DNA of 64,000 nucleotides, taken from positions 5,895 through 69,894 of the forward strand of contig JAYKHY010000064.1 in the NCBI GenBank assembly GCA_035285025.1. Reading direction: 5' to 3'. Under the pieces are notes generated by a model that had not been told where the DNA came from, ran no database searches, and saw nothing but the letters and a program-made list of their open reading frames with translations. The position numbers and the translations under genes were made by a program. This document shows positions 9,268 through 48,373 of this stretch, one piece after another; position 1 is the first letter of the stretch; every line of letters starts with the position of its first letter. This stretch comes from Vampirovibrionales bacterium (lineage in GTDB: Bacteria > Cyanobacteriota > Vampirovibrionia > Vampirovibrionales > JAJTHC01).

Positions 9268-11130
9268 ATGACCTCGATTTCTTCAGACGCTTCTTTGACC
9301 TCGATTTCACCAGAGTCGCTCATCCAGCCCCGGCAGGCCGTGCTAGCCCTAAGCGCCTACAAACCTCCGCTAGAAGGGCGTACGGGTAAAATTCGGCTGG
9401 ATTTTAACGAAAACACGGCGGGCCTGGCCGAGCTGATGCCTGAGGCGCTACGCCCCCTGGGCGAAGCGTTTGGGATTTACCCCGAGTACGAGGCGCTTAC
9501 GCAGCAAATGGCTGCGCAGTACGCCCTGCCTGGCGCCGAATGGTTACTGCTGACGAACGGCAGCGATGAGGGCCTGAGCGTACTGGCCAGCACGTTTATT
9601 GAACCTAAACAGGACGTGGCGCTAATTTGCCAACCGACGTTTCCGATGATTCCGCACAGTTTAAAACTGGCCGAAGCCAAATTGCTCGAGATTCCCCTGA
9701 CGCCTGAGTTTCAGTTTGATTTGTCAGCCATAGAGCAGGCGCTTAGCTCGCAGCCCGTTAAGCTGGTGATGCTCGCCTCGCCCGACAACCCCACGGGTGC
9801 TGAACTTGCGCCTGAGACGCTCGTGCGCTGGTTAAAACAATTCCCGCAAACGCTATTTATTATGGACGAAGCTTATGCGGGATTTAGCAGGGAGAAAGAT
9901 TCTTACAGGGAGGGAGCCCGAGGGAGGGAACGGCCCACGGCAAACGAGCAAACACTGAGCCTACTAACACAGAGCCAAAACCTCATCATCTCCCGCTCAT
10001 TCTCCAAAGTCTGGGCGCTGGCTGGCCTCCGGCTGGGGATTTTAATGGGCCAACCCTACCTGATGAACTACCTGAGCCGCGTACGATCGCCGTATAGCGT
10101 GAACGTAGCGGCCGTGGCCGTGGCGCAAACCATGCTGACGCACACAAACGCGGTGTCGCAGTCTGCGCGGGGCATTATGGCCCGCAAACCCGCGTTTATC
10201 CAAGCAATTCAGGCCCGGGGCTGGCGCACAAGCAGCGGCGGCGGAAACTTTTTTTTACTGGCGGCCGGGCGGCAGTTGCCCCAACTTTTAGCCGCTTGCA
10301 AACAGGCGGGCGTGTTGATTCGAAGCCAGGATGAAAAGCCGATGCTCAAAGGTTGGGCGCGCGTGACCGTGGGTACGGATGCCGAGAATCAGGCGTTTTT
10401 GGCTGTACTGGATTCGCTCCGGCAACAGCAGGCCTTGATTTTGGACTTGGACGATACGCTGGTTGATTGCAGCGAAAGCTTTACGGCGGTTGTCCACGCG
10501 CTTTACGCGCATTACAGCGGCCAGCCGCTCGCGCTGGATACACTCCAAACATTACGCGCCGAAGGCGGGTATAACGATGACTGGGTGACGACTTTAGAGC
10601 TTTTAAAGCGGGCTGGCTTAAAAACGCCCACGCTGGGTGGCTCTTCGACGCTTGGCGCAGCCGAAAAACCTTTACCCTCTTTGACTGAAATTGCAAAAGA
10701 AGGCGTGCGTCGGTATCTGGACGTTGCACCCAAAACCGAGTGCTTGCTGGTGGCTGATGCGACTTTAAAAGCGCTCGCAAAACGCTTCAGGTTGATGATT
10801 TACACCGGACGGCACCGGCCTGAATATGACCCGGTTTGGCGCGAACGATTGCAAGCGCTAATAGAAGACGTGCTATGCGTGGACGAGTTACCCTCGGGCA
10901 TGCAGCCCAAGCCCGCGCCGGATGGCTTAAACGTGCTGATGCAGCGCCATGGCTTAACAGGCGGCTATTATGCAGGCAACAATATCGATGATATGCAGGC
11001 AGCCACAGGCGCTGCGCTGATTGCCATTGGCGTCACGACCACCCAGCCAGAAGCTGTGCTTGTGGGCGCCGGGGCGGCCTGGTGCGTGAGCACCCTTGAG
11101 CAGTTAAGGGATGACTTTTTGCTACCGTAA
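9268..11130 (+). CDS. hisC: histidinol-phosphate aminotransferase fused to a C-terminal HAD-superfamily phosphatase domain
   Basis: The aminotransferase part has LDFNENT, DEAY and SRSFSKVWALAGLRLG (PLP lysine). The C-terminal 230 aa have HAD motif I DLDDTLVD, motif II IYTGR, motif III KPAPDGL and motif IV GNNIDD. Confidence 0.85.
   Translation: MTSISSDASLTSISPESLIQPRQAVLALSAYKPPLEGRTGKIRLDFNENTAGLAELMPEALRPLGEAFGIYPEYEALTQQMAAQYALPGAEWLLLTNGSDEGLSVLASTFIEPKQDVALICQPTFPMIPHSLKLAEAKLLEIPLTPEFQFDLSAIEQALSSQPVKLVMLASPDNPTGAELAPETLVRWLKQFPQTLFIMDEAYAGFSREKDSYREGARGRERPTANEQTLSLLTQSQNLIISRSFSKVWALAGLRLGILMGQPYLMNYLSRVRSPYSVNVAAVAVAQTMLTHTNAVSQSARGIMARKPAFIQAIQARGWRTSSGGGNFFLLAAGRQLPQLLAACKQAGVLIRSQDEKPMLKGWARVTVGTDAENQAFLAVLDSLRQQQALILDLDDTLVDCSESFTAVVHALYAHYSGQPLALDTLQTLRAEGGYNDDWVTTLELLKRAGLKTPTLGGSSTLGAAEKPLPSLTEIAKEGVRRYLDVAPKTECLLVADATLKALAKRFRLMIYTGRHRPEYDPVWRERLQALIEDVLCVDELPSGMQPKPAPDGLNVLMQRHGLTGGYYAGNNIDDMQAATGAALIAIGVTTTQPEAVLVGAGAAWCVSTLEQLRDDFLLP
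9904..9940 (-). repeat. copy of the 37-38 nt GC-rich palindromic repeat, inside hisC and in frame
   Basis: tacagggagggagcccgagggagggaacggcccacgg is the reverse complement of the family consensus. It is translated as YREGARGRERPT. Confidence 0.75.
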
Positions 11131-11205
11131 TCGTTTTTAGGGGCACTAAAATCTTATCGCAGGGTTTAAAGCATTTGTAATGTTTTAAAAACAAAGTTTT
11201 CGGCG

Positions 11206-12072
11206 ATGGATTTTAATATGTCAGCTAACAATGTTTTGGATGGCAAGCCATTGCCTACTGTGAAAAGAGCGACCAGGCCAGGGCAAGTGCCTATTCCTGA
11301 GGCGAACACGGTTCCGGCTCCGGTGATTGGTTTGGCCGATGCGGTTAAGCCGATTTGTTACACTGCATCGGAAGTAAAGCCCGACGGTACAACCATAGAG
11401 AAGTATTTTTTAGGCAACGCGGTCTCGTTGGGAAACGGTTATTATTTAACAAACAAACACGTTGTTGACCCGCTACCCAGTTATCTAAGCCTTAAGCTCG
11501 ATTATCCGCGCTCTACGGATGATCCAGGTCGTTGTGAAGGGGGCTTGACCGCAACCGTACAAAAAGTTTCTAAAAAGCACGACCTGGCGATAATAAAAAC
11601 GTCCGAGGGTGCCTCGGCGCCTGAAGCACCGTTAAGGCGCTCCAAAAACAAGATGCCTAAGTTAAAAGCTACAAAAATAGCTTATCTCGTCGGGTCTCAT
11701 CCGGATACGCCCGGAAAATCAGTTATCCCGCTAACCAAATCTGCAGATTGGCAACCGCAATGGATTAATCGTATGGTATACGGCTTGAGTCATGGCTTAA
11801 AAGCTGTTGGCTTAAAAGGGTTTACGCCCGAATATCTGAAATATGACAATAAAGCGTTGAAGTCTTATGCAATTGACCCCAGAGGATTGTCTGGAAGTGC
11901 TATTGTAGACGCTGACGGCAAGTTAATAACGCTTACGACCCAGGCAGAAGTGCGCCTAGGTTCCGACACTTTTTATGGTTCGTTTTATGGCGTTCAACCC
12001 AAGGATATCAAAGACTTTATAGCGCCGTATTTTAAACCTGAAGAGACCCCTTCTAAATCAATATCACCTTAA
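11206..12072 (+). CDS. trypsin-like (S1 family) serine protease-like protein
   Basis: Candidate catalytic triad contexts YYLTNKHVV (His), KKHDLAIIK (Asp) and GLSGSAIVD (Ser). The gene is visibly more A/T-rich than its flanks. No obvious signal peptide. Confidence 0.6.
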   Translation: MDFNMSANNVLDGKPLPTVKRATRPGQVPIPEANTVPAPVIGLADAVKPICYTASEVKPDGTTIEKYFLGNAVSLGNGYYLTNKHVVDPLPSYLSLKLDYPRSTDDPGRCEGGLTATVQKVSKKHDLAIIKTSEGASAPEAPLRRSKNKMPKLKATKIAYLVGSHPDTPGKSVIPLTKSADWQPQWINRMVYGLSHGLKAVGLKGFTPEYLKYDNKALKSYAIDPRGLSGSAIVDADGKLITLTTQAEVRLGSDTFYGSFYGVQPKDIKDFIAPYFKPEETPSKSISP

Positions 12073-12104
12073 TAGTACAATCTTTAAGCAATGAGTGATT
12101 TTTT

Positions 12105-12737: not shown

Positions 12738-12753
12738 GGTTTTAATAGAGCAT

Positions 12754-13067: not shown

Positions 13068-13694
13068 TTATAATTCCTTGCAAATCCAACGTCGCAACAA
13101 GACACCATAACGCGCTTTACGAAGCCCCAGGCGTCTTGGACGCCAAAACTGCTCGCAATAGTTTTGCCAGCCAGCCGTAATGGCCACCCCGTGAGGATCG
13201 TTCGCAAAAACAATGCAGCATTCTTGGTTCACAGCCAACCCCCGGTAGGGTTCGCATTCGTTTATACCTGGCTCGCCTGGCTCATCTGACCCCGACTCAT
13301 CTGATTTAGACTGCTTTATCCGATACAGTAAGTGCCAATGCCAGTTAAACGGGGCCTTATTATAGATTGCCTGCCACCCTGTATAGCGTGCTTGTTGCCG
13401 GTAAGCTCCCAGCACCAGGTAGAGTCCGTCTTTGGCCAGTGCTTGCGCAATTTGATCAAACGAAGGGTTTCGAACAATTTGCGCGTTCAAATTAAAACGT
13501 CGTGCTGCGCGGGCTAGCATACCTGGCAGCATGCCCAGCCAGGGCGGTCGCTTGAGCAATGCATCGACCTGCGCCTGCGTGATGGGGGTTTGGTACAGCG
13601 CGGCCAGCGCCATGGCCAAACACGTTGTGCCGCAGCCGTTATCGCGCTGCTGGAGCAGCGGCGGAGCGGGGCGGATAAAGCGCATAGGGTCCAT
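13068..13694 (-). CDS. papain-like cysteine peptidase (C39-like domain) protein
   Basis: QQRDNGCGTTCLAMALAALY resembles the Cys motif of C39-like peptidases. A downstream His (WHWHLLY) is present. Confidence 0.55.
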   Translation of the reverse strand: MDPMRFIRPAPPLLQQRDNGCGTTCLAMALAALYQTPITQAQVDALLKRPPWLGMLPGMLARAARRFNLNAQIVRNPSFDQIAQALAKDGLYLVLGAYRQQARYTGWQAIYNKAPFNWHWHLLYRIKQSKSDESGSDEPGEPGINECEPYRGLAVNQECCIVFANDPHGVAITAGWQNYCEQFWRPRRLGLRKARYGVLLRRWICKEL

Positions 13695-13808: not shown

Positions 13809-13846
13809 GCGAGGGCCGTTCCCTCCCTCGCGCTTCCTTCCCGGGT
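13809..13846 (+). repeat. copy of the 37-38 nt GC-rich palindromic repeat (intergenic)
   Basis: The sequence is gcgagggccgttccctccctcgcgcttccttcccggg. Confidence 0.8.
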
Positions 13847-14226
13847 TAAACTGACCCAAGAGCTTTTTTTAGCCCAAACGGACTCAAAAGCCTAAATATG
13901 CTATGATTTTAGCAACTTGAGCCGTGCCAATTAAACCTGTTGCCCTAGGCCGTGGCCGAGCGGTTAAATATTTATGCCGGGTAAATATGTAAGCGCTGTA
14001 ACGCAATTAAGTTGTTAAAAAAGCCCCCGGTACGTTTGACGGGCTAAAATTGTAAGCGTTTACGTAAAATGCTTAAAAAATTCGCACAAAAAGTGCTTGA
14101 GCGGGTTTGACGCCATTACAGACTGATTTAATCTCGACTAAAAAAATATATTGCTAAAAAAAATGGGTTAGAACGCCCTGGGGGCAGCGCCTGACTTCAA
14201 TCAACGGGGAGCCGGTTTAATCACGC

Positions 14227-15141
14227 ATGAGTACGCCAAGTCCGACTGCTACGAGATATTTCGCGCCGGGTGTTTTACCTGCTGGACTTTCGCAAGCGCC
14301 GCCCGTGTTGCCGCCGCATTTGATGGCACCGCACTTTTACGCGCAATACGGTGCTTTAAAACAGCCCGCAACGCCTGTAATCGCCAATGCGCTGCCGGTG
14401 CCGGGTTTGGGGCCTGTGGCTGGGCCCTCGCCTGCGGCTGCGGCGATGCCGATGGAAGCCCTGGTGCGCGATTCGGTTGAGTTGGCGGGTAAAAAACTGG
14501 TTCAGCAAGCCGAACATCTGAACCCTACACAGATGCAATCTGCTATTAATAAGGCTGTAATGAGCACGGGTAAGGTTGCGGCGGGCCTAACTAAAGTGGG
14601 GATTCAGGCGATTCCTGAGTTTCATAATCCGCTCGAAAAAGGCTGGCTGCGCCTGGTGGGGTTTTTTAATGAATTTGCAGAATCCGCCAAGGGCGTGATT
14701 CCACCGCAGTTGTATCGTCTGTTTTATGGCGTCGAGATGGCGTATACCGCGCTGGATTGCCTGAATACGCGTAAGCACGCCCTGACGCATCAGGATAATT
14801 TGTTGGAGGCGCAGCAAAAGCGCAAAGTTGCCGTGGGCGAAATGCTTAACACGCTGGGCAAGCAAGGCCTGGCTACGTTTTTGATTCCTTATGTTGTGAT
14901 TGAGAACTTTAAAAAAGTCGTTGAGCACGCCCTGGAAAATCCAAAACTGATGCAAAAGTTACCGGCAAAACTTGCTCAAGCTGTTACCAGTAAGGCGGGT
15001 AAAAAATTCATTCCGGTGCTGGCGGGCTTGTCCACGATTCCGTTGTTAACCCGCTACGTCGATCCGTTGGTGTTTGGCGGCTGCGATAAATTCTTGCGGC
15101 CGCTCGTCGGTGCCGCGCCTTTAGAGCAAGAGCCTCGCTAA
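14227..15141 (+). CDS. hypothetical protein with a proline-rich N-terminus
   Basis: 304-aa ORF. I recognise no motif. Its 3' end is part of the tandem repeat at 15109-15303. Confidence 0.55.
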   Translation: MSTPSPTATRYFAPGVLPAGLSQAPPVLPPHLMAPHFYAQYGALKQPATPVIANALPVPGLGPVAGPSPAAAAMPMEALVRDSVELAGKKLVQQAEHLNPTQMQSAINKAVMSTGKVAAGLTKVGIQAIPEFHNPLEKGWLRLVGFFNEFAESAKGVIPPQLYRLFYGVEMAYTALDCLNTRKHALTHQDNLLEAQQKRKVAVGEMLNTLGKQGLATFLIPYVVIENFKKVVEHALENPKLMQKLPAKLAQAVTSKAGKKFIPVLAGLSTIPLLTRYVDPLVFGGCDKFLRPLVGAAPLEQEPR

Positions 15142-15303
15142 GCCAGATTTGACATCGCAAGGGTTAATGCGCGGGTTCACCGACGCGTGTTACAACGCCG
15201 GGTGCCGCGCCTTTAGAGCAAGACCCTAGTTAAGCCAGATTTGACATCGCAAGGGTTAATGCGCGGGTTCACCGACGCGTGTTACAACGCCGGGTGCCGC
15301 GCC
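15109..15303. repeat. 92-bp tandem repeat (2 full units plus an 11-bp third start) covering the stop region of ORF 14227..15141
   Basis: Units start at 15109, 15201 and 15293, each with GGTGCCGCGCC. Units 1 and 2 differ at 3 of 92 positions, all within the last three sense codons. Confidence 0.9.
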
Positions 15304-15442: not shown

Positions 15443-18400
15443 CTAAACCTCGAGCCAGCTGGGGCCCACGCTGACATCTACAATCAGCGGCACGCGCAGC
15501 GGCTTCTGAGCATCGTCGAGCTTCATCGCCCAAAGCACCTGCTTGGTTACGTCGTCAAGGGCGGCTTGCGGGGCCTCTAGCACCAATTCATCGTGTACCT
15601 GTAGCAGCAGTCGGGCCGGACTTTGCGTCTCGTGTAATTTTTCGTGCAGGCGGTTCATGGCCAGCTTGATTAAATCGGCCGCAGAACCTTGCAGGGGCGT
15701 GTTAAACGCGGCGCGCTCGGCAAACTCCCGAATGTGCCGCACGGGGCTCTCTAGCGCCTCTTTAAGCCAGCGACGGCGGCCATATAGCGTTTCAACGTAG
15801 CCCTGGCCGTGCGCCAGTGCCTTGGTTTCTTCAATAAAATCGCGCACGCGCGGGTAACGTTCAAAATATTTATCAATAAACGCCTGCGCCTCGAATCTTG
15901 GCACGCCCAGTTGCTGCGATAATCCGTGCGCGGTTTGACCGTAAATCACGCCAAAGTTTACGGTTTTAGCCTGGTAGCGCATGGTTTTGGTCACGTCTGC
16001 CAGCGGTACATCAAACACCAGGCTGGCGGTGCTGACGTGTACATCCTGCCCGTTTTGGAACGCCTCAATCAGGTGCGGATCTTCCGAAAAATGCGCCAGC
16101 AGGCGCAGCTCGATTTGGGAGTAATCGGCCGAGATTAAAAAATAGGGCTGATTAGCGTCTAAAAGTCCATCCTGATGTGGGGTGCGTTCCCTCCCTCGCA
16201 CTCCCTTTCCGGAGGGAATAAACGCGTGCCGGATTTTTTGCCCCACCTCGGTTTTAACCGGAATATTCTGCAGGTTGGGCTCGCTGCTAGAGAGCCTGCC
16301 CGTGGCGGCAATCGTCTGGTTCAAGCTGGTATGCACCCGGCCCGATTTGGGATGCACCAGCTGCGGCAACGCATCAATGTACGTGCTTTTAAGCTTGAAT
16401 AGCTGCCGGTATTCCAGCAGTTTACCTACCATCGGGTATTCTGGGGCCAGTTGCTCTAGTACTTGGGCGTCGGTGCTAAAGCCGGTTTTGCCCGCGGTTT
16501 TTTTGGTGGGTTTAATGCCCATGCGCTCAAATAAAATCTCGCCCACTTGTTTGGGCGAATTTAAATTAAACGGCAGGCCGGCCAGCGCGTGGACTTCGGC
16601 TTCTAGCTGGGTGAGCTGCTCGCCCAGTTGCTGCGAGAGTTCGGCCAGATAGCTCGTGTCAATCGTGATGCCAAGGCGTTCAATGGCCGATAACACCTCG
16701 ACCAAAGGCAATTCAAGCTCGTAGAGCAAAGCATTCAGGCCCGCGTTGGCTTGCTGGGCAAGCTCTGTTGCAAAACTTTCGGCCAGCGCAAGCGTCACGT
16801 AAACATCGCTTGCGGCATACGGAGCGCCTTGCGCAATAGGCACTTGGCTAAACAGAATCTGTTTTTTCCCGCTGCCAATCAGCGTGGTAATATCCTGCAG
16901 AATCAGTCCCAGCAGGTCGCTGCCCAGGGCTTTAAGGCCGTGGCGGCGCTCGGGATTCAGCACGTAACTGGCTAGCATGGTATCGAACCACAGGCCCTGG
17001 CATAGGTCTGGATTGATATTTTTTGGGCTTGGATTTTCTGGATTTATCGCTTCGGCCTGTTGCAGTCCCCATTCGTTGAGTACGCTGCGCTCGTATTTGG
17101 CGTTGTGCGCTATTTTAATAATGTACGGGTCTGCCAGCAGCGGTGCCAGTTTCTGGAGTACGGTTTTCGGCGTGAGTTGCGGCGTTTTTCCTGATGTTTC
17201 GTCATTGGTTTCGTCTGCCACATGCCCGACCGGCACATAAACGATTTCGAGGCGATCAGTCTCAGGTGTTGGGCTATCAGGTGTTGCGCTAAGCTCGGTT
17301 GCCTGTGGGTTTACATGCAGGGCAACGGGCTGGCAAGGCAAACACGCTAGCTGCAACGGATTTTTAGGCGTGTAGCCTGTTTTAGATAACGCCTTGCTCC
17401 AGCCAAGCGCGTAGCCCACGGGCTGAATCGTAAGCGGGTCCAGGCCGGTGGTTTCCAAGTCTATTGCCAGCACGCCTTGCGCTTTGGCGCGGGCTAAAAA
17501 CGCGTCAAGGTCGGGCTCGGTTGTAACAAGTTTAAACGGCGGGCTAAAGGGCGCTGTAGGCGCAGATGAAAAAGCCAAAAGCTGGTGCTGAAGCGTTGCC
17601 TCTGCACTGGCACTATTCTGTGCTTGTGTGCCGCTTGCAAGTAGCTCGGGCGAATTCGGGTTTGATGCGCTTTGCGCCGGCGCGTCTGCCGCCGTTGCAT
17701 TGGCGGCGTTCGGCGTCTGGGGCGAAATAGATTCTTGCGTAAACGGTTTAAGTAACTGCGGCGATTGCTGTAAAAACGTTCTGAACTCGCATTTCTTCAG
17801 AAAATCCACCCAGTGCTGCCACACCGGAATATGCAATTCAAGGGCCTCTAGCGTCGTGGTTGCCTCGGGTACATCGCACTTAATTTGCGCAAGCGTTTGG
17901 CTCAGGTAAGCTTGCGCTTTGTGGGTGATTAATTTTTCGCGCAGTTTGTCGGGTTTAATCTGGTCGATGGCGTTGTAAATGGCATCGAGCGTGGGGTACT
18001 CGGTGAGTAATTTGCACGCGGTTTTTTCGCCAATGCCTGGTACGCCCGGAATATTATCAGAGGTATCGCCGCGTAAGGCCTTGTAATCTACGACCTGCTC
18101 GGGTTTAACGCCCAGTTTCTCGAACACGGCAGCTTCGCCGTAGCGCTTGAGGCCTTCTCGCGGCGTGCGCGAGGGAATCAATACCTGAATCTGCCCGGCG
18201 TGAGTTGTGTTGTCGACATCGTGCACCAACTGGAAGGCGTCTTGATCGCCGGTAAGAATTAGTACTTCGGCCTGGTGCTGTTGCGCAAGCTGTTTGGCCA
18301 GCGTGCCGATGACATCGTCAGCCTCGACGCCGGACACCTGAAACAGCGGCATGCCCAAGGCGTTTACGCCCTCCAGAATCATGGCCATTTGCACTTTCAT

Positions 18401-18736
18401 GGCGTCTGGCATGGCTTCGCGGTGCGCTTTATACGCCTCGTAGAGATCGGTTCGAAACGATTCCCGCGAGACGTCAAACGCGACCGCAACGCCCGTAGGG
18501 GCAACCTCTTTGAGCATGGCAAACAGGGCGTTAAAAAAGCCGTACACTGCCCAGGTTGGTTCTTGCCGGCTGGTTTTCATGCCGGTGCGCTCGAGCGCAA
18601 AGTACATTCTGTAGGCCAACGCGTGGCCATCAATTAATACGATTTTAGGCGTACCCGTTTTGCTCGATTCAAGTATTTGCGATTGAGGTAATTGCGCCGG
18701 CGGGGTCAATAACTCGCGCTGCGTTTCGGTGTTCAT
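15443..18736 (-). CDS. polA: DNA polymerase I (1097 aa, with low-complexity linkers)
   Basis: 5'-nuclease motif GDTSDNIPGVPGIGEKTA, motif A ADYSQIELR, motif B RYQAKTVNFGVIYG and motif C LQVHDELV. Confidence 0.97.
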   Translation of the reverse strand: MNTETQRELLTPPAQLPQSQILESSKTGTPKIVLIDGHALAYRMYFALERTGMKTSRQEPTWAVYGFFNALFAMLKEVAPTGVAVAFDVSRESFRTDLYEAYKAHREAMPDAMKVQMAMILEGVNALGMPLFQVSGVEADDVIGTLAKQLAQQHQAEVLILTGDQDAFQLVHDVDNTTHAGQIQVLIPSRTPREGLKRYGEAAVFEKLGVKPEQVVDYKALRGDTSDNIPGVPGIGEKTACKLLTEYPTLDAIYNAIDQIKPDKLREKLITHKAQAYLSQTLAQIKCDVPEATTTLEALELHIPVWQHWVDFLKKCEFRTFLQQSPQLLKPFTQESISPQTPNAANATAADAPAQSASNPNSPELLASGTQAQNSASAEATLQHQLLAFSSAPTAPFSPPFKLVTTEPDLDAFLARAKAQGVLAIDLETTGLDPLTIQPVGYALGWSKALSKTGYTPKNPLQLACLPCQPVALHVNPQATELSATPDSPTPETDRLEIVYVPVGHVADETNDETSGKTPQLTPKTVLQKLAPLLADPYIIKIAHNAKYERSVLNEWGLQQAEAINPENPSPKNINPDLCQGLWFDTMLASYVLNPERRHGLKALGSDLLGLILQDITTLIGSGKKQILFSQVPIAQGAPYAASDVYVTLALAESFATELAQQANAGLNALLYELELPLVEVLSAIERLGITIDTSYLAELSQQLGEQLTQLEAEVHALAGLPFNLNSPKQVGEILFERMGIKPTKKTAGKTGFSTDAQVLEQLAPEYPMVGKLLEYRQLFKLKSTYIDALPQLVHPKSGRVHTSLNQTIAATGRLSSSEPNLQNIPVKTEVGQKIRHAFIPSGKGVRGRERTPHQDGLLDANQPYFLISADYSQIELRLLAHFSEDPHLIEAFQNGQDVHVSTASLVFDVPLADVTKTMRYQAKTVNFGVIYGQTAHGLSQQLGVPRFEAQAFIDKYFERYPRVRDFIEETKALAHGQGYVETLYGRRRWLKEALESPVRHIREFAERAAFNTPLQGSAADLIKLAMNRLHEKLHETQSPARLLLQVHDELVLEAPQAALDDVTKQVLWAMKLDDAQKPLRVPLIVDVSVGPSWLEV
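16177..16214 (+). repeat. copy of the 37-38 nt GC-rich palindromic repeat, inside polA and in frame
   Basis: gtggggtgcgttccctccctcgcactccctttccggag. It is read on the polA strand as SGKGVRGRERTPH. Confidence 0.7.
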
Positions 18737-18769
18737 GGGTGTTCCTGAGGGGGCTCTTTCAAAAAACTA

Positions 18770-18860
18770 GGCGATTATCCCGTAACGAGTAGTATGGCAA
18801 ATTTTCGTTAGGCAGCGCAAACCTTTTAGCGTCCATACTGTTCGTCGTGGCATAATCGCT
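18770..18860 (+). mobile_element. 91-bp hairpin element (MITE-like), copy 1, flanked by a perfect 8-bp direct repeat
   Basis: GGCGATTATCC...GGCATAATCGCT with long internal stem pairing. AAAAACTA occurs at 18762-18769 and again at 18861-18868. The element lies 34 nt upstream of the polA start codon. Confidence 0.75.
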
Positions 18861-19116
18861 AAAAACTATTAGGCGCACCAACATGCTTTAAATGTGCTTG
18901 AAACGCGTTTAAATCTGTTTGAATGTGGCGATTAACGTGCGCCAGTTGATGATGCTGCCTGCTTTATAAAATAGCACGTTTTTTGCCACCACTAGGCTGC
19001 TGCCTAACTGGCACTGTTAAACTCTTGCGCTATTTGTCGCATGATTAACAGGGCATTACGCACAGGCGCATAATTTATGCGAGCCAGACATAACATAAAT
19101 CCGATTAACCCTGACT

Positions 19117-19626
19117 TTAGGCAGGCCAAATGAGCATCGCAAGGGCCATCAGGCCCATGGTCAGGTTTTCTGAAAGTGTAACGCTTGAAAGCGGCACGTT
19201 GAGCACGGTGCCCATGCAGGCACAACTTACCGATAGCCCAGCTTTAAGCGCTCGCATCACCCCAATCACGCCCAGCAACATTAACAGCACGGTCAGCCAC
19301 AAAACGCCTTGCGGCGCAACGCCGCTTAAGTAAGCTAAGCCAAGTGCCAGCTCGATAAATGGGTAGGCCAACGCATAAACTGTGCTGCGCTGGGCCAGTA
19401 AATCGTAGCGGGCAAAGCCTTCGGCAAATTGCGCAGGATTAAATAGTTTTAACATGGCAAAGCTGCAAAAGGTTAAACCCATCCAAAGCCGCATTGCTGT
19501 ATGCGCCGAAGCCCCGGTGCCCCAGACAAGCGACAGGGTCATTGCGATTGTGATAAGTACAAGCGCAATTAATGGCCAGTACTTTCGCCATGTATTTTCA
19601 GAGGCTTTTACGGGGTGCTGTATCAC
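19117..19626 (-). CDS. MauE/DoxX-family integral membrane protein
   Basis: Four predicted TM segments. FAMLKLFNPAQFAEGFARYDLL resembles the MauE domain. Confidence 0.65.
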   Translation of the reverse strand: MIQHPVKASENTWRKYWPLIALVLITIAMTLSLVWGTGASAHTAMRLWMGLTFCSFAMLKLFNPAQFAEGFARYDLLAQRSTVYALAYPFIELALGLAYLSGVAPQGVLWLTVLLMLLGVIGVMRALKAGLSVSCACMGTVLNVPLSSVTLSENLTMGLMALAMLIWPA

Positions 19627-19678: not shown

Positions 19679-19769
19679 AGCGATTATGCAACGACAGCAA
19701 GCATGGACGCTGAACTGTTCACGCTGCATGACAAAACGATGTCATACAGTCAATAACGAGATAATCGAC
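19679..19769 (-). mobile_element. 91-bp hairpin element, copy 2 (inverted relative to copy 1)
   Basis: agcgattatgcaacgacagcaagcatggacgctg...cgagataatcgac aligns along its whole length with the reverse complement of copy 1. Confidence 0.75.
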
Positions 19770-25078: not shown

Positions 25079-25261
25079 GCAATTTAGCGTTTCAGTTAGG
25101 ATTAACGCCATCATTTATCCGGAATAAAACATCGGCTCTTGATGCCCTATGCCAAGAAATACCCTGATGCGTGGATGCGATTACGTTATCTTTAAGTGGC
25201 ATTTTTATGCAAAAGGTGGCGTTTTTTGCGAATAAAACGGGTATAGAATGATAACAATAAA

Positions 25262-25351
25262 GGCGATTATCCTGTATCTGACAGTAGGGTAAATTTTCGT
25301 CACGCAGCGTAAGCCTTTAAAGTCCATACCGTCAGTCGTGGCATAATCGCT
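25262..25351 (+). mobile_element. 91-bp hairpin element, copy 3
   Basis: ggcgattatcctgtatctgacagtagggtaaattttcgtcacgcagcgtaagcctttaaagtccataccgtcagtcgtggcataatcgct. It lies 53 nt upstream of yggS. Confidence 0.75.
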
Positions 25352-25403
25352 AAAATAGTCGCAATGCCTCTTTGATTTTTTTTGAGTCGAGTCTTAACGT
25401 GTA

Positions 25404-27367: not shown

Positions 27368-27604
27368 TTAGCCAAAGAAGCCGCTGTAAATCAGGTAGAA
27401 CGAAACGAAACCGAATAAACCGAGTAACTCGACAACCCCAAGGGTAATAAAGTAGTACGGGGTCAGGTTGGCTTGAATTTCGGGTTGGCGAGCCGAACTG
27501 TTAAAATAGGCACTGGTCATTAAGCAAATACCAATGGCGGGGCCAATGCTGGCAATACCTACGGCAAACGGTGCGGCGAGTTTTGCTGCGGCTAAAGCGT
27601 CCAT
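27368..27604 (-). CDS. atpE: ATP synthase F0 subunit c
   Basis: Two-helix hairpin with GIASIGPAIG, the loop ARQPE, and the conserved carboxylate in GVVELLGLFGF. Confidence 0.8.
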   Translation of the reverse strand: MDALAAAKLAAPFAVGIASIGPAIGICLMTSAYFNSSARQPEIQANLTPYYFITLGVVELLGLFGFVSFYLIYSGFFG

Positions 27605-27743
27605 AATTCGGGCAAAGTCCTAAAAAATCAAAACAAAACAGAAAAAAGGTTTAAACTAGCCTTATCAAACCCAAAAGACGCCGCGGATGCAAGTCGAGCC
27701 ATTGGCGGGTCGTGGGTCAATTTGGTGGGTTCAATATCCTAAA

Positions 27744-27780
27744 GCGAGGGTCGTTCCCTCCCTCGCGCTCCCTCCCTGAG
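27744..27780 (+). repeat. copy of the 37-38 nt GC-rich palindromic repeat (intergenic)
   Basis: The sequence is gcgagggtcgttccctccctcgcgctccctccctgag. Confidence 0.8.
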
Positions 27781-28084
27781 CCAAACTGTTCCTCAAACCA
27801 TTATTGAGTTGTGAGCGTTCGTCTGGCGTGTGTCGCCTCTCGCCGCTTGGCGCTTTGCGCTCCGTTTGGGGGCTGCGCGCTGTTGCATGCGCCTACATTT
27901 TTGCGTGCAAAATTGTCGCCTTGCAGTTTGATAAAGGGTTGATAGACATTTTTTGCTTGCATGAGTTGCTTATGGGGTTTGGTGCCCTGGGCTTGTTGGT
28001 AACTAGCTTCAATAAACATCAAAAGTGCGATGCGCCCTAATGACAAGGGCTAACGCGGGGTGATTGAGGGTGCGTGTTTATGAA

Positions 28085-28113
28085 GGGTCGAGGGAGGGTT
28101 GTCGAGGGTGGGT
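28085..28113 (-). repeat. degenerate relative of the GC-rich palindromic repeat
   Basis: gggtcgagggagggttgtcgagggtgggt. A further fragment, gggagggagcgggagggg, lies at 28361-28379. Confidence 0.4.
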
Positions 28114-28413
28114 TTTAATCCTATCAAGATAACGATTTTGAGCGGAACCGCTGCTCTGGTTATAAAAATGCTGCTCAAAACGACTCATTCAAGCGTTAAT
28201 TTGCGCTATAGTGCGTCGCTATTACCCATAATCAAGTCGCGGGTTTATCCGGGTTTAAAAATTTCCTGCGGCTGGCGGATTGGGTGTGTTTGAACGATCT
28301 TCTGAGTTATTCGGCCTGAGCTGTTCGGCTTCAGGTGTATTTGAGGGGTGTGGGTTTGATGGGAGGGAGCGGGAGGGGTAAGTTTGTTTTAAAAACAATA
28401 ATTTCAGAAACGA

Positions 28414-28436
28414 CAAAAAAGCCTCTTAAAAGGCTT
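28414..28436 (-). terminator. rho-independent terminator for ORF 28471..28821
   Basis: On the minus strand: AAGCCT, loop TTTAAG, AGGCTT, then TTTTTTG. Confidence 0.6.
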
Positions 28437-28470
28437 CAGGTATGGCTTTAACGCTAGCGTTACCTAGCGT

Positions 28471-33210: not shown

Positions 33211-34926
33211 TTAAGCTGGCTGCATCGCCAGATTTTCGGGCGACTCCGCCAGGGCCATGGCGATTTGAACCGCTGCCAACGTGCTTTTTGCCTTGTTGCG
33301 CGTTTCGAGATATTCCTGCTCGGCAATCGAATCAAACACAATGCCTGCGCCTGCGTGCACGTGCGCCCAACCCGGCTGGAGCAGCACGGAACGAATCGCA
33401 ATGGCGCCATCCATATTGCCATCGGCACCAAAGTAGCCTACTACGCCCGAGTAAAACCCGCGGCATTCGGGTTCAAGCTGGTTAATCAGTTGCATCGCCC
33501 TGATTTTGGGCGCGCCGCTAACGGTTCCGCGCGGCAGGCACGCGCTAAATAAATCCAGTGGCGTTTTGTCGTCAGCCAATTCGCCGCTAATGTCGGTGGT
33601 CAGGTGCATCACGTGGGTGTAACGCGTTAAGGCGGCGATTTGCCCCACCTGAATGCTGCCCGGCTTGCAGCAGCGGCCTAAATCGTTGCGATCCAAATCG
33701 ACCAGCATGCGATGCTCGGCAAGCTCTTTTACGTTTGCGCAAAGTTCGTAGGCCAGCCGCGCGTCATCGGCCTGCGTTTTGCCGCGATAGCGCGTGCCGG
33801 CCAGCGCGCGTAACTTGACTTGTTGCTGTTGGCAGCTCACAAAGGTTTCGGGCGAGGCCCCTATGTAATGGTAATGATTAAACTTGAGCCAGTAGCCGTA
33901 AGGCGTAGGGCTAATGGCTTGCAGCACGCGGTAGGTTTGCAACGCTTGCGCGTCTAGCAGGGTTATTTCTGCTTGAGAGGGTTGATGGGCGGGGCTGGTT
34001 TTTAGTTCGCATTCAGCACCAGCATTATCAGCATCGCTTAGCCTAAGGCTATAGCGCTGCGCCAGCGTTTTTTGATTATTTTCCGTACTGTCAGCATCGC
34101 TAAGCCTGAGGCTATAGCGCTGCGCCAGTACGAGTTGAAACACCTGCCCTTCGGTGATCCACTGGCGGGTCTGTTCAACGGCCTCGCAAAAGGCCGCTTT
34201 ATCCATCGAAGCCTCTACCCGGTTAAAAATCCAGTCAGCATCCGAGGTTTTTTCGGCAAAGGCATCCAGCGCCAGCACTGGCAGTTGTGCCGGTTGGGCC
34301 AACGCGGCCATTAAATCGCGCCAGCGCGTATCGGCTTCGGCGTCAGGCAAATCGCAGAGCCAAAACGTGCGCCTGAGCCGGTGGTCTACAATCAAAACCT
34401 CGTGGTACTCGCCGTAAATCAGGTCGGGCACTTGCAAGGGATCGCAGGGTTTCGGCGCAATCGCGTCGGTGTACTGCGTTGCGCCGAAACCTGTTATGCC
34501 CACCCAACCACCGGTAAAGGGCAGTGTGCCCTCCCAGGGCAACGGCATGCTTTGCGCCAATAAGGCTTGCCTTGCAGCAATTTCAGCGTCTGTGAGTTTT
34601 TGCTGCGCTGCCAGCCACGCAAACGGATCGTCGCAGTTAAAATACTGCTCGTTGCCGCTTGACGTTGTGATTAGCCGGGCTTTACCGTTTTTAACTTCAA
34701 AAATTCGGCTCGGGCGTATCCCGATAAACGAGAACCGGGCCAGTCGGCTGTCGCCCTCGTTGCTATCCAGTAAAAAGGCGTGCGATTCGTTCGCGCTGAG
34801 ACGCGCAAACAACGAAACCGGGGTTTCAACGTCCGATGTCCACGAACGAACCCTCAAATGCTTTTCAGCAGGAAGCTTTTCTGGCGATGGTGTTTGACCC
34901 TTATCCATTGCATAAGCATAAGGCAA
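33211..34926 (-). CDS. trpE: anthranilate synthase component I family enzyme (TrpE/PabB)
   Basis: FLLDSNEGDSRLARFSFIG, GQVFQLVLAQRY, AGTRYRG, GSIQVG, PRGTVSGAPKIRAMQLI and YSGVVGYF. It contains an internal duplication. Confidence 0.9.
   Translation of the reverse strand: MPYAYAMDKGQTPSPEKLPAEKHLRVRSWTSDVETPVSLFARLSANESHAFLLDSNEGDSRLARFSFIGIRPSRIFEVKNGKARLITTSSGNEQYFNCDDPFAWLAAQQKLTDAEIAARQALLAQSMPLPWEGTLPFTGGWVGITGFGATQYTDAIAPKPCDPLQVPDLIYGEYHEVLIVDHRLRRTFWLCDLPDAEADTRWRDLMAALAQPAQLPVLALDAFAEKTSDADWIFNRVEASMDKAAFCEAVEQTRQWITEGQVFQLVLAQRYSLRLSDADSTENNQKTLAQRYSLRLSDADNAGAECELKTSPAHQPSQAEITLLDAQALQTYRVLQAISPTPYGYWLKFNHYHYIGASPETFVSCQQQQVKLRALAGTRYRGKTQADDARLAYELCANVKELAEHRMLVDLDRNDLGRCCKPGSIQVGQIAALTRYTHVMHLTTDISGELADDKTPLDLFSACLPRGTVSGAPKIRAMQLINQLEPECRGFYSGVVGYFGADGNMDGAIAIRSVLLQPGWAHVHAGAGIVFDSIAEQEYLETRNKAKSTLAAVQIAMALAESPENLAMQPA
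34028..34128. repeat. in-frame 63-bp (21-codon) tandem duplication inside trpE
   Basis: tcagcatcgcttagcctaaggctatagcgctgcgccag (34028-34065) is repeated as tcagcatcgctaagcctgaggctatagcgctgcgccag (34091-34128). The protein reads LAQRYSLRLSDAD...LAQRYSLRLSDAD. Confidence 0.85.
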
Positions 34927-38495: not shown

Positions 38496-39059
38496 TGTAG
38501 GGGGGTATTTTCTTTCATCTGATATTTGCGTTAAGCCGCTTGCGTCTTCAAGTTTAGCAGACTTTAGGCGAACACGCTAAATACGCGCTTTTTTGGGGCG
38601 TGGGTTAGCTTGGTTCGGGGAGGGAGTGCAAGGGAGACTTTACAGAACAAGGCCTCGCTTCAGGATGTTGACCCACTAAAATACCCCACTAGGCTTTTTG
38701 CAAGCGTTTGCCGGTTTAAATAGCATCCCCCCCCTTTTTTTGGGGAGGCTAAATTGCAAGCTTGTGGGTTCCCGTTTGGATGCTTTTAGGGTATAATTCT
38801 CGCCCGATACCAAATTCTTCTATTCGCCATTTTTCTGCTCGCTCTTCTAAACTGATTTAATCGCTTTTTATTCTGTAGTTAAGTTTAACCGTAAACAATA
38901 TTTTAAAAATTGCCTTAGTGCCTGGCTGCATGTAACGGCTAACCCGTATTTTTTTAAATACGTTAGGCCTCATCTTTGGGTGATAGGGTAATTTAGCGCT
39001 GTTCTAGCTAGCTTGATTCTCTCGTTTGGTGCTTCGCGTGACCCCGGCTTGGAGGCAAC

Positions 39060-43890: not shown

Positions 43891-43947
43891 ATTTTGTTAA
43901 AAAGGCCGTAAAAAGCCTAATTGTGTGTTGCTCCTTATCCCCTCATT

Positions 43948-44086: not shown

Positions 44087-44154
44087 AGTGATTAGGACAT
44101 AACTGGCCGTTTGGACCTTGAAAGCTTGACACAGTTTGTTACGAGATAATCGCC
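44087..44154 (-). mobile_element. shorter (about 68 bp) relative of the 91-bp hairpin element, copy 4
   Basis: The reverse complement reads ggcgattatctcgtaacaaactg...gtcctaatcact. The first 17-18 nt and the terminal motif match copies 1 to 3. Confidence 0.5.
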
Positions 44155-44233
44155 AAAGCTTGTATTCTGCCACGTGCGCCAGGTACAGCACGCCCCAAGC
44201 CAAAAGGTTCTGTTTTAAGACCTTATTTTGGCG

Positions 44234-45814
44234 CTATTCCTTGAGTGTTTCGGCAAGTGTGTCGGCGATGGCCTGGACGTCTGCCAGATTTAAACCGGTT
44301 GCCTTCGCCAGGCGTGAGCCGTAATCAGCATCTGCTTTGTAACAGAACGCCGTAATACGGTTTTTAACGGCTGTGTTGGTGACCTGTTTTAAATCGCCCG
44401 AAAAATTCGAGACCAGGTTGGTTTTTTCTTGCGCCGTAAACGAGCGGTATAGTTCGCCCGCTTGTTTAAAGTTGAGCGTTTTGGTTATGCCGCGCTGTTG
44501 CGTTGTGCCGTTCAGCGGGGTTTCGGTTAGTTTAAAGTTGGCGTCATCGGTAAACCCGTCTTCGCTAATGCTGGGTTGGTAGTTAATGTCGCTGGTTTGT
44601 TTTTTCAGGAACCCCTCGCCCGCTTGATTATGGTTATTTACCTTGGCAAGCGGCATGTTAATGGGGAGTTGCTGGCCATTTACGCCAAGCCGGTAGCGCT
44701 GGGTATCGGTGTATGAGAACAAACGTCCCTGTAGTAATCGATCTTCCGAAGGTTCAATCCCCGGAATCAGGTTTGCGGGCGAGGGGGCAAACCGTTCAGT
44801 TTCGTTAAAATAGTTTTGGGGCATTTTGTTGAGCGTTAATTTACCCACGCGCACTTCGGGGACTAAATCGGTCGGCCAGATTTTCGTGGCATCCAACGGG
44901 TTAAACTCAAATGCGTTTAACTTGTCTGCCTCTAAAACCTGAACCATTAAGTCCCAGCTGGGGTAATTCCCGGCCGCAATCGCTTTACGAAGATCGTTGG
45001 TGTGCAGGTTAAAATCCTGGCCGCCCGCCTCGGTTGCTTGCTGCGCTGTAAAGGTTTTTAGGCCCTGGTTGCTTTTCCAGTGGAATTTGGCGTAATGAAC
45101 CTTGCCTTCGGCGTTGATCAGTTTGTAGGCATGCACGCCAAATCCGTCCATGGTTCTCAGGCTGGCAGGGGTGCCTTGGTCTGAGTATAAAAACGTCAGC
45201 ATGTGCGTGCTTTCGGGTTGATGCGAGAAAAAGTCAAACCAGCGGTTGGGGTCTTGCACATTGCTCACGGGCGAGGGTTTAAGCGAATGCACCATGTCGG
45301 CAAACTTAATGGCATCGCGGATAAAAAACACGGGCAGGTTATTGCCGACTAAATCCCAGTTGCCCGATTCTGTATAAAAGCGCGTGGCAAATCCGCGCGG
45401 ATCGCGTAGCGTCTCTGGCGAGCCGCTGGCGTTAATTACCGTCGAAAAGCGAACAAACACCGGGGTTTTAAGGCCAGGCTTTTGCAGGGGCGCCAACCGG
45501 GTCAGCGCTGATAAATCGGTATAACTCTCAAATTCGCCGTGGGCGCCTACACCGCGCGCGTGTACCACGCGCTCCGGGATGCGTTCGCGATCAAACGCGG
45601 CCAGTTTTTCGATCAAATGAACATCTTGCAGTAGCGTCGGGCCGGTTGGGCCTGCGGTTTGGCTGTTCTGGTTGTCGCCAACGGGCGCGCCATTGTTACG
45701 CGTTAGGGTGGGCGCTTCGGCAAGGGCGATTAAACTTAACGCGTTGATTACACTTGAAACCCCAAGGGTAAGCGCTAGGGCAACCGGAGTCACGCGATTG
45801 GTGCGGCGATTCAT
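44234..45814 (-). CDS. monofunctional heme catalase with an N-terminal signal peptide
   Basis: FDRERIPERVVHARGVGAHGEF, RFSTV, and the signal-like N-terminus RVTPVALALTLGVSSVINALSLIALAEA. Confidence 0.95.
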   Translation of the reverse strand: MNRRTNRVTPVALALTLGVSSVINALSLIALAEAPTLTRNNGAPVGDNQNSQTAGPTGPTLLQDVHLIEKLAAFDRERIPERVVHARGVGAHGEFESYTDLSALTRLAPLQKPGLKTPVFVRFSTVINASGSPETLRDPRGFATRFYTESGNWDLVGNNLPVFFIRDAIKFADMVHSLKPSPVSNVQDPNRWFDFFSHQPESTHMLTFLYSDQGTPASLRTMDGFGVHAYKLINAEGKVHYAKFHWKSNQGLKTFTAQQATEAGGQDFNLHTNDLRKAIAAGNYPSWDLMVQVLEADKLNAFEFNPLDATKIWPTDLVPEVRVGKLTLNKMPQNYFNETERFAPSPANLIPGIEPSEDRLLQGRLFSYTDTQRYRLGVNGQQLPINMPLAKVNNHNQAGEGFLKKQTSDINYQPSISEDGFTDDANFKLTETPLNGTTQQRGITKTLNFKQAGELYRSFTAQEKTNLVSNFSGDLKQVTNTAVKNRITAFCYKADADYGSRLAKATGLNLADVQAIADTLAETLKE

Positions 45815-46572
45815 TTGATAGAAGCCTTTCTGGAATCCGATTACAATCTTTAGACTTGACTGCGGTAACTTGCTGAATTACCCCAAAAAATCCATAAAAA
45901 ACGCGTTATTTTAGGCGTTTTTAATGCGTTTTTTGCGCTTTTTTTGCCCAAAATTTTGGTGGCGATTCTGTAAAGTTTGAAAAAATCAGACGCTTGAGAA
46001 GATTGACTTGAATTTTAATTGGTTTGAATTTTTAAAAATAAAACCTATCAGGTCAGCGCGGGCTATTTTTAAAACAAGCTCTCATTTGTAACCCGTTTAC
46101 AACCTGGCTGAAAGCACGGCTCAAATCTATGGCAAACTATGCCAAAAATTGCGCCAGCTCGCCCTAAACGTGAAGCGTAATAGGCGTAATTCGTTACATT
46201 TTGCGGTGGGCCGGGGCTGCGTTTTGTCCTGCGCCAAGCGCGTCACGCGCGTGCTTGTTCATATAAATGCATCGCAAGAAATAACTTAAAAAAATGCTTA
46301 AAGCGCGTGAGGTTTTTTACGAATGTTTGTTATTGTTAGCGCTTAATTTACGCAGGGTAATTTATGTTGCGTTAACGCTGGCGCTAATTAATAGGTAAAT
46401 CCGTTGCAGTGTGTTGTAAAAGCGTGTGTGTGCTACTTTTTAAAGCAAGCTTTTTTGTTTTTTAGCACATTTACGCTTTGTTTTGCGTTTAATTTTTAGG
46501 TGACCCTAACCTAAACCCGGATTTTATTGCCGAAAGCCCGTTTGCGATTACCCCCGAGAGTATTTTAATCCC

Positions 46573-48243
46573 ATGATTCAGCTAGAAGCCGTTGCGAAAA
46601 CCTTTGGTAGCCACACTTTATTTGAAGATATTACGTTCCAGGCCAATCCCAGTAGCCGCATTGGTTTAGTTGGTAAAAACGGCGCCGGAAAATCAACTTT
46701 GTTCAAGTTGATTATGGGCGAGCTGGAGCCGGATGCGGGCAAAATCCACCGCGATCCGGGCACGATGATTCAGTGCCTGACGCAGGAGCCAAAAATCACG
46801 CACGGCAATACGCTCTGGGAAGAAGTCCAATCCGCGTTCCCGTCGTTGCAAGCCTTGCAAGATGAAGAAGATGCCCTGCTTGCCCAGTGGGATACCTTTG
46901 ACACCGATGCGCAAATGGCAGCCTGCGACCGGTTGGCGGCGATTAACCAGTCTCGCGAAAACTTGGGGCACCTGGATGCCGATGCCAGCCGGATGCTAAC
47001 TGGACTGGGATTTGCGCTCGATGAGTTTGATCGCAAGGTGGAACATTTTAGCGGTGGCTGGCAAATGCGGATAAACCTGGCCAAAGTATTGCTGCAAGGT
47101 GCGCATTTTATTTTGATGGACGAACCGACGAACCATTTGGATCTTGAAGCGCGCGAGTGGTTGGAAGGATTTTTAAAGTCGTATCCGGGCGGGTTGTTTG
47201 TGGTCTCTCACGATCGCTCGTTTCTGGATCAGGTGGTGACCGAAATCGCCGAAATTGAACTGGGGCGTTTAACTATTTGGCCCGGTAATTACACGCAAGC
47301 CAAACAGCTCAAGGCCGAGGCGCACGAGCGTTTGCAGGCTGCGGCGGATCGCCAACAAAAAGATATGGCTAAACAAATGGCCTTTGTGGAGCGCTTTAGA
47401 GCCAGCGCGACCAAAAGCACGCAGGCCAAAAGTCGCGAGAAGCAGCTGGCTAAAATCGAGCGCATTGAAGCCCCTAAAACCGACAACCAGAAAATGAGCA
47501 TTCGGTTTCCGGCGCCGCCTGCCAGCGCGCGACAAATGCTGATGTTTAAATCGGTGGGTAAACGGTTTTATGATAACGTGTTGTTTACCGGTATGACGGC
47601 CGACATTGAACGCGGCCACAAGGTGTTTTTGCTTGGTGCGAACGGCTGCGGTAAAACCACGCTGCTCAGAACCATTTTAGGGCTGGAGTCGATGAGCGAA
47701 GGCGATATTGAGCAAGGCCAGAACGTAAAACTGGGCTATTTTTCGCAGCATCAGCTCGAAACGCTGGACCCTAAGCTGAACGTATTTGAAACTCTGGAGC
47801 GTGAAGCTGACGGGCGAATGGACAACACCGAAATCCGTGGCGTGCTGGGGCGGTTTTTATTCTCGGGCGAGCGGGTTTACAAGCCGGTTTCGGTTTTAAG
47901 CGGCGGCGAAAAATCTCGGCTTGCGCTGGCAAAATTGATTTTAGGCGATGCCAACCTGCTTTTGCTGGATGAGCCGACCAACCACATGGATATTCAGGCG
48001 CAGAGTGCGATTGAGCAGGCCTTTAAGCAGTACGAAGGCGCGCTGTTGTGCATCTCGCACGATCGTTATTTTATTCAGCAGGTGGCCACGCATATCTGGG
48101 AGTTTTATAAGGGTCATTTGCTCAAGTACGATGGCGGCTACGACCATTACCTAAGCAAGCGCGATTCACGTCGGGCGGAGCTGGATGCTCGTTTGGAAAA
48201 GCAGGCGCGCAAACTGGCTGCTGCTTCTGCCAAGCAAAAGTAG
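46573..48243 (+). CDS. ABC-F family ATPase (two ABC domains, no TM domain)
   Basis: GKNGAGKST, LSGGWQMR, GANGCGKTT and LSGGEKSR, plus a charged C-terminal tail. Confidence 0.9.
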   Translation: MIQLEAVAKTFGSHTLFEDITFQANPSSRIGLVGKNGAGKSTLFKLIMGELEPDAGKIHRDPGTMIQCLTQEPKITHGNTLWEEVQSAFPSLQALQDEEDALLAQWDTFDTDAQMAACDRLAAINQSRENLGHLDADASRMLTGLGFALDEFDRKVEHFSGGWQMRINLAKVLLQGAHFILMDEPTNHLDLEAREWLEGFLKSYPGGLFVVSHDRSFLDQVVTEIAEIELGRLTIWPGNYTQAKQLKAEAHERLQAAADRQQKDMAKQMAFVERFRASATKSTQAKSREKQLAKIERIEAPKTDNQKMSIRFPAPPASARQMLMFKSVGKRFYDNVLFTGMTADIERGHKVFLLGANGCGKTTLLRTILGLESMSEGDIEQGQNVKLGYFSQHQLETLDPKLNVFETLEREADGRMDNTEIRGVLGRFLFSGERVYKPVSVLSGGEKSRLALAKLILGDANLLLLDEPTNHMDIQAQSAIEQAFKQYEGALLCISHDRYFIQQVATHIWEFYKGHLLKYDGGYDHYLSKRDSRRAELDARLEKQARKLAAASAKQK

Positions 48244-48373
48244 CGTTGCTATTTTGAGATGGGCGTTCTAATTACATAAGCTTTGCTATGCGAGGGCCGT
48301 TCCCTCCCTCGCGCTTCCTCCCTGAGCTTGGGCCGAGCAAAAGTAGCGTTGCTATTTTCAGATAGCGCGTTCT
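48229..48373. repeat. about 41-bp direct repeats duplicating the ABC-F stop region and flanking a palindromic-repeat copy
   Basis: gccaagcaaaagtagcgttgctattttgagatgggcgttct (48229-48269) is repeated as gccgagcaaaagtagcgttgctattttcagatagcgcgttct (48332-48373). Confidence 0.8.
48290..48326 (+). repeat. copy of the 37-38 nt GC-rich palindromic repeat (intergenic)
   Basis: The sequence is gcgagggccgttccctccctcgcgcttcctccctgag. Confidence 0.85.

Follow-up and report, generated by a model that had tools for sequence, protein, structure and literature searches.

Dispersed hairpin-forming repeats, two of them in frame within DNA polymerase I and a HisC-like enzyme, in a Vampirovibrionales bacterium

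Repetitive extragenic palindromes (REPs) are short palindromic repeats that share a consensus and lie mostly outside genes (PMC12306157), and Di Nocera et al. 2013 sorted most of them by a GTAG or CGTC tag beside the stem (PMC3733652). REPs lying wholly inside open reading frames (ORFs) occur in several species, many of them in replication and repair genes including that of DNA polymerase I, and the short Rickettsia elements RPE-4 and RPE-6 have been equated with CGTC-type REPs (PMC3733652). Rickettsia palindromic elements (RPEs; RPE-1 to RPE-8) are the classic in-frame palindromic inserts tolerated by protein folds (PMC10969869). Here we describe a repeat family in a 64,000-nt stretch of the metagenome-assembled genome of an uncultivated, predatory-type Vampirovibrionales (Melainabacteria) bacterium (GenBank assembly GCA_035285025.1, contig JAYKHY010000064.1, positions 5,895 to 69,894 of the forward strand; hereafter the window). 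The unit, 35-37 nt long (GCGAGGGCCGTTCCCTCCCTCGCGCTYCCTCCCTG), has five full copies in the window where chance predicts none, and it probably represents a short, non-autonomous, hairpin-forming selfish repeat family that behaves like REPs and RPEs on a Vampirovibrionales chromosome. An earlier sequence-only reading of this DNA had located five copies, three of them between genes and two in frame within genes, and both the positions and this division were borne out:

9904..9940, minus strand: genic copy in a HisC-like gene; the G-rich strand is sense and encodes YREGARGRERPT inside a 16-aa insert

13809..13845, plus strand: intergenic copy between the divergent genes 13068-13694 (minus) and 14227-15141 (plus); intact hairpin, about 14 bp with flanks

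16177..16214, plus strand: genic copy in polA; the G-rich strand is sense and encodes GKGVRGRERTPH inside a 20-aa insert

27744..27780, plus strand: intergenic copy that lies 140 nt upstream of atpE (minus strand, 27368-27604); 7-bp hairpin intact

48290..48326, plus strand: intergenic copy between convergent genes, 47 nt past the stop codon of an ABC-F gene; exact match to the consensus

Four kinds of search support these copies. The consensus of the sequence-only reading, allowing up to 3 mismatches, finds three of them (13809, 27744, and 48290) against 0.00 expected from 100 dinucleotide-preserving shuffles, and a 14-nt core, GTTCCCTCCCTCGC, allowing up to 2 mismatches, recovers all five against 0.29 expected. 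In repeat detection, the four same-strand copies make up the largest direct-repeat family of the window and each pairs with the copy at 9904 as an inverted repeat, and a profile hidden Markov model (HMM) built from the five copies rescores them at E = 1e-10 to 1e-12. Pairwise identity among copies ranges from 69 to 94%; the copy at 27744 is listed as the best match to the consensus, and that at 16177 is the most diverged (69-80% identity), with a decayed canonical stem. When six copies, including one from outside the window that is described below, are aligned with 40-nt flanks, similarity ends sharply at GCGAGGG...CCCTG, which places the conserved unit at about 35 nt; the edges of the unit are sharp, and the flanking sequences of different copies are unrelated to each other.

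In the unit, a stem of 7 bp (GCGAGGG/CCCTCGC) encloses a loop of 9 nt (CCGTTCCCT) and is followed by a tail (GCTYCCTCCCTG), and the 7-bp inverted repeat and CCCTCCCT tail proposed earlier are both real. The intergenic copies, read on either strand, form the 7-bp stem with its 9-nt loop, and flanking bases lengthen the stem of the copy at 13809. Two of the three intergenic copies, folded as 76-nt stretches including flanks, have z-scores of -3.4 and -3.9 relative to shuffled sequences, and across the five copies 94% of stem cells pair, with one compensatory change from G-C to C-G. The canonical stem is lost in the genic copies. Fourteen bases (CGTTCCCTCCCTCG), which take up the greater part of both the loop and the 3' arm, are invariant over the five window copies, which suggests sequence-specific recognition rather than structure alone.

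The two genic copies lie in the following genes:

9268..11130, plus strand: fusion of a class I/II aminotransferase (HisC-like) and a HAD hydrolase, 620 aa; insert at about residues 207-222

15443..18736, minus strand: DNA polymerase I, 1097 aa; insert at residues 842-861, just ahead of motif A (SADYSQIELR)

In the window, PolA reads AFIPS-GKGVRGRERTPHQDGLLDA-NQPYFLISADYS, whereas in eight of eight homologues AF(I/V)P runs to the SADYS motif A strand with 20 residues fewer. The HisC-HAD fusion reads DEAYAGFS-REKDSYREGARGRERP-TANEQ, and all ten homologues compared (the nearest 62% identical) are short of 16 residues there. Had the orthologous sites of all relatives carried the same sequence, ancient conserved sequence would have been indicated, but at both genic sites the relatives lack it. 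Judged by these alignments, both genic copies are lineage-specific in-frame insertions and not ancient sequence, and they behave, as had been proposed, like elements that colonize coding sequence. The core is read in one frame in both genes, with the G-rich strand as sense (CGA GGG AGG GAA CG., giving RGRER), although, for two cases, this common orientation and frame could be chance (1 in 6). Both inserts, 48 nt in the HisC-like gene and 60 nt in polA, are longer than the unit, and the bases in excess of it bear no relation to each other in the two copies. In AlphaFold models, residues 206-226 of the HisC-HAD protein are coil with a predicted local distance difference test (pLDDT) score below 50, and the strand and helix that enclose them reach 90-95 on average over 10-residue blocks. 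Residues 845-858 of PolA are likewise modeled as coil with pLDDT below 50, while neighboring 10-residue blocks average 78-83; this stretch runs between residues 839-840 (strand or bridge) and the strand 865-872 that leads into motif A. Both inserts are thus predicted to occupy tolerated loop sites.

The same two proteins carry further lineage-specific inserts that are not derived from the repeat: in PolA, which is about 90 aa longer than the PolA of its nearest relatives, examples are residues ~335-393 and several stretches in the 3'-5' exonuclease region that are longer by about 9-17 residues, and in the HisC-HAD protein the segment 'TPTLGGSSTLGAAEKP'.

The family is not confined to the window. 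Other parts of the genome were reached through the proteins of a relative's contig (L007), whose best non-self homologues in NCBI and Logan sources, 68% and 80% identical to the queries, lie on contigs that were taken from run SRR13425446. One of these, a 14.6-kb contig from the same sample and organism (L011), contains a sixth copy at 14537-14582, CAGGGAGGGAGCGCGAGGGAAGGAACGGCCCTGGG (nhmmer E = 1.8e-7), 120 nt downstream of a 1024-aa gene; a second, of 12.9 kb from the same run (L012), has zero copies. Confinement to this stretch, which would have spoken against a dispersed family, is therefore excluded. The three separate genome stretches examined hold six full copies in 91.5 kb, on average one every 15 kb or so, with copies on two of the three. 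By extrapolation, a genome of a few megabases would hold about 100-250 copies.

Assembly error is not the source of the repeats where independent assemblies can be compared. The window is matched at 100% identity by three Logan contigs that come from separate assembly of run SRR13425446. Two of these cover the copies at 16177 and 27744 fully; the third (L009) ends within the copy at 48290, one base before the end of a 31-mer that this copy has in common with that at 13809. Because these separate contigs agree with the window, the copies at 16177, 27744, and 48290 are not artefacts of the original assembly. The Logan contig L010 terminates exactly at the end of the copy at 27744, and the 30-31-mer at that point is absent from the other window copies, which hints at more copies elsewhere in the genome. 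Such repeats break short-read assemblies, as the ends of these Logan contigs illustrate, and they may be of use as lineage markers.

Searches of other collections found no comparable sequence. Scans with CGTTCCCTCCCTCGNNCTYCCT of 185,579 GTDB species genomes and of JGI metagenomes gave three matches each, which we judged to be chance because the left arm is missing from them and their surroundings are unrelated, either GC-rich or simple sequence; the host genome is evidently outside both collections. Viral contigs gave 0 matches and plasmids only partial matches at E ~0.7, and the 9.9-kb relative's locus L007 (PolA 64% identical) has no copy. For the peptides that the repeat encodes, a leave-one-out test at the size of a 5.8-billion-protein set gave E = 1.5e3 to 1.2e6. 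Rfam has no match to the repeat at gathering thresholds and none at E <=1 around the three intergenic copies, and in the literature we found the core sequence in no relevant context and no such repeats described for Vampirovibrionales or Melainabacteria, in keeping with the sequence-only reading, which had known of no description of the motif.

In addition to the full copies, three degenerate relatives had been proposed, and they fared differently. Two can be kept, with adjusted ends for the first:

38610..38636, minus strand: truncated copy with the tail and part of the core, between divergent genes; nhmmer E = 0.006

28085..28113, minus strand: core fragment, with the 10-nt core CGAGGGAGGG and a second copy of it with one mismatch, in the 866-nt non-coding gap upstream of atpE

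The segment 38610-38636 is the next profile-HMM match after the five full copies and was judged credible; the third proposed relative, at 28361-28379, is a mere G-rich resemblance. The gap upstream of atpE (27605-28470, 866 nt) has no convincing ORF and no Rfam match at E <=1; it holds the copy at 27744 as well as G-rich repeat fragments, and no gene for the ATP synthase a subunit lies ahead of atpE.

Four of the five window copies, and the truncated copy at 38610-38636, have no flanking direct or inverted repeat adjoining the unit. No direct repeat of >=8 nt abuts the unit ends at any copy, and for four of the five window copies the matches are 67-167 nt off or absent. Flanking repeats occur only at the copy at 48290, which lies within a local duplication rather than beside a short target-site duplication:

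48223..48428, no strand assigned: 103-nt partial tandem duplication around the copy at 48290; its first part, an approximately 50-nt direct repeat at 89% identity, includes the ABC-F stop codon

Here GCGAGGGCC, the left arm of the copy at 48290, occurs again at 48393, exactly 103 nt downstream. This may be a separate local event, since the window has unrelated tandem duplications of 170, 92, and 63 nt, or it may point to template switching as the way of copying.

Those three tandem duplications are near-perfect, and the genome seems prone to small duplications. The first (5363-5681, about 170 nt twice) is mostly intergenic and overlaps the 3' end of nrdB by about 30 nt; the second (15109-15292, 92 nt twice) repeats the final codons and stop of the ORF 14227-15141, and a Logan contig (L008) breaks inside it; the third (34028-34128, 63 nt twice) lies within trpE. 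A second repeat family of about 95 nt, at 18769-18864 (plus), 19679-19767 (minus), and 25261-25355 (plus) with a partial copy at 44114-44158, has ends that form an inverted repeat (GGCGATTATCC ... GGCATAATCGC) and looks like a miniature inverted-repeat transposable element (MITE); two inverted copies of it flank a MauE-like ORF at 19117-19626.

The setting of the repeats is an ordinary chromosome. The window encodes tpiA, dut, flagellar genes, nrdB, minC, polA, pfk, and the ATP synthase subunits b, b', and c, and further purK, trpE, trpG, a catalase, a cbb3-type oxidase, pheS, and one tRNA-His. The nearest relatives of the host are 62-69% identical in protein: the closest PolA homologues, labeled Vampirovibrionales, are 64% identical by BLASTP and 68-69% in alignment, the next, labeled Melainabacteria, reach about 52%, and the affiliation is the same when judged by BamA and by a dicarboxylate symporter. 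Coding density is about 76% on a rough gene list, with 25 gaps of >300 nt, which is low for a bacterium, and GC skew is positive across 1-64000, so the plus strand is probably leading. The spacer before the ORF at 14227 has a sub-threshold Rfam match to the suhB/mmgR small RNA at 14149-14192 on the minus strand (25.8 bits where the gathering score is 41; E = 0.0033), which is probably chance. Four of the six full copies, a small sample, are extragenic, and they lie in these positions: downstream of a gene between convergent genes (48290), between divergent genes, upstream of an operon, and downstream of a gene. Two genic copies among five, relative to a coding density of ~76%, is not a significant intergenic enrichment (P = 0.09).

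Several of our observations weigh against a REP- or RPE-like selfish family. Classified REPs have a GTAG or CGTC tag, but neither is present beside the stem of the present unit on either strand, the stem-flanking bases being CAGT/GCTT, TAAA/GCTC, and CTAT/GCTT; REPs commonly occur as inverted pairs, but the present copies are solitary; and REPs lie mostly close to gene 3' ends, in convergent or unidirectional spacers, but the few intergenic copies here show no consistent preference of that kind. REPs go with a REP-associated tyrosine transposase (RAYT) whose gene the repeat flanks, but neither a RAYT nor any other transposase turned up in the 51 window ORFs (by Pfam) or in the called genes of L011 and L012. 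Covariation in the stem is not significant, as 114 of 500 shuffles equal it and only five sequences contribute. With the nearest relative at 62-69% protein identity, no empty site at the DNA level and no presence/absence polymorphism can be demonstrated, and the DNA seen is about 3% of a typical genome, so that the total copy number is extrapolated. In favor of such a family stand the lineage-specific in-frame inserts and the dispersal past the window, and on these grounds the REP- or RPE-like behavior first suggested for this motif is supported.

From the insertion patterns we infer that the unit is mobile, and a route by which it might have been copied can be sketched. A unit of about 35 nt would have been copied to many unlinked sites. 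Copies landing between genes would retain the hairpin, whereas copies landing in genes would survive only where the added length was a multiple of three, the frame stayed open, and the site was a surface loop; these would then be translated as a hydrophilic peptide rich in Arg, Gly, and Glu (..RGRER..) while the hairpin decayed. The likeliest mechanism would be an enzyme, encoded elsewhere in the genome and working in trans, that recognizes the hairpin and works on it in single-stranded form, much as HUH/RAYT or IS200-IS605 transposases do, and the lack of target-site duplications would agree with it; template switching is a less likely mechanism.

The unit could instead be a cis-acting site that the host selects and keeps for its usefulness, for example as a site for a nucleoid or regulatory protein or as an RNA terminator, an mRNA stabilizer, or a translation element, and some of its features would suit such a role. 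One strand has a Shine-Dalgarno-like run (GGGAGGG) and the other an anti-Shine-Dalgarno-like run (CCCTCCC); conservation of the loop, the 3' arm, and the tail exceeds what structure would need; the intergenic copies keep a stable hairpin; and one copy lies 47 nt past a stop codon and another 140 nt upstream of the atp operon. However, two of the six copies are translated within unrelated housekeeping enzymes with the hairpin decayed, where a regulatory role is implausible, the position relative to genes is inconsistent, no T run follows the hairpin, and Rfam has no match up to E 1. We therefore regard a host-selected site as unlikely.

About as improbable is spread by errors of replication or recombination, such as template switching, copying guided by microhomology, or gene conversion among short hairpins rich in GC. 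The 103-nt duplication around the copy at 48290, the 170, 92, and 63 nt tandem duplications in the window, the unrelated filler that makes the genic inserts longer than the unit (48 and 60 nt), and the failure to see a transposase in the window or on the two further contigs would all suit this explanation, but neither flanking repeats nor microhomology occur at four of the five window copies, and sharp common edges at unlinked sites better fit the precise excision and insertion of a defined element. A similarly low probability attaches to two other possibilities: the repeats may be the footprint of an undescribed Melainabacteria hairpin-element system, an untagged REP-like repeat in which the invariant loop and C-rich tail are recognized by a transposase or nuclease unlike RAYTs, or the host may have co-opted them. 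Co-option comes into consideration because of the strand asymmetry, namely the G-rich sense strand and common RGRER frame of the genic copies together with the Shine-Dalgarno-like and anti-Shine-Dalgarno-like runs.

A classical MITE, one that stems from an insertion sequence and is mobilized by a DDE transposase through terminal inverted repeats and target-site duplication, is far less probable. The unit does include an inverted repeat, and its copies are scattered, some of them within genes, but at ~35 nt it is far below known MITE lengths, it has an internal 7-bp stem and an asymmetric tail instead of terminal repeats, and the missing target-site duplication at four of the five window copies contradicts it. 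Least credible of all is a functional or selected G-quadruplex on the G-rich strand (GGGAGGGAGCGCGAGGGAGGG), a candidate that we rejected since, although the copies at 9904 and 27744 have four canonical G3 runs with spacers of 1, 7, and 1 bases, only those two of the five copies qualify and in the copies with intact stems the hairpin is the predicted minimum-energy fold even when quadruplexes are allowed.

As far as we have found, no small palindromic repeat family has been reported before from the non-photosynthetic lineage that is sister to cyanobacteria, and these repeats would be the first. They would also provide another independent case of selfish hairpin DNA absorbed as surface loops into essential enzymes, including DNA polymerase I; intragenic REPs, including those in DNA polymerase I, are already known (PMC3733652), which lowers the novelty of this point. 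No new mechanistic question is opened unless a new mobilizing enzyme is found.

A comparison with the described classes of repeats places the family most clearly. [quoted passage not shown] MITEs known from cyanobacteria and other bacteria, such as Nezha, ERIC, Correia, and Chunjie, are, like the present repeats, non-autonomous and dispersed and can sit in genes as in-frame fusions (PMC10969869), but they are about 100-400 bp long with terminal inverted repeats and target-site duplications, and the present unit has neither, its sole inverted repeat being the internal stem. The likeness to RPEs lies in the in-frame occupation of unrelated housekeeping genes at positions that are predicted to be surface-exposed and tolerated by the fold. 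RPE-1, however, is about 100-150 bp long and encodes 35-50 aa, compared with ~35 nt and ~12 aa here, the host lineage is unrelated, and the CGTC tag is missing; by description, the repeats are set apart from RPEs, and the resemblance is one of behavior and not of family membership. REPs are the closest in form: they are imperfect palindromes of 20-40 nt with a common consensus, as is this unit of 35-37 nt with its 7-bp stem and 9-nt loop, and the few repeats seen are likewise dispersed, four of six of them between genes, without target-site duplication and with occasional in-frame genic copies, DNA polymerase I included. Unlike REPs, the unit has a conserved, asymmetric, C-rich 12-nt tail, its few present copies have no bias toward gene 3' ends, and its host belongs to the Melainabacteria, for which we found no report of REPs. 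The repeats are thus a sequence family not described before, which probably belongs to a kind of small selfish repeat that is already known, and what is new is the host lineage and the untagged, asymmetric unit.

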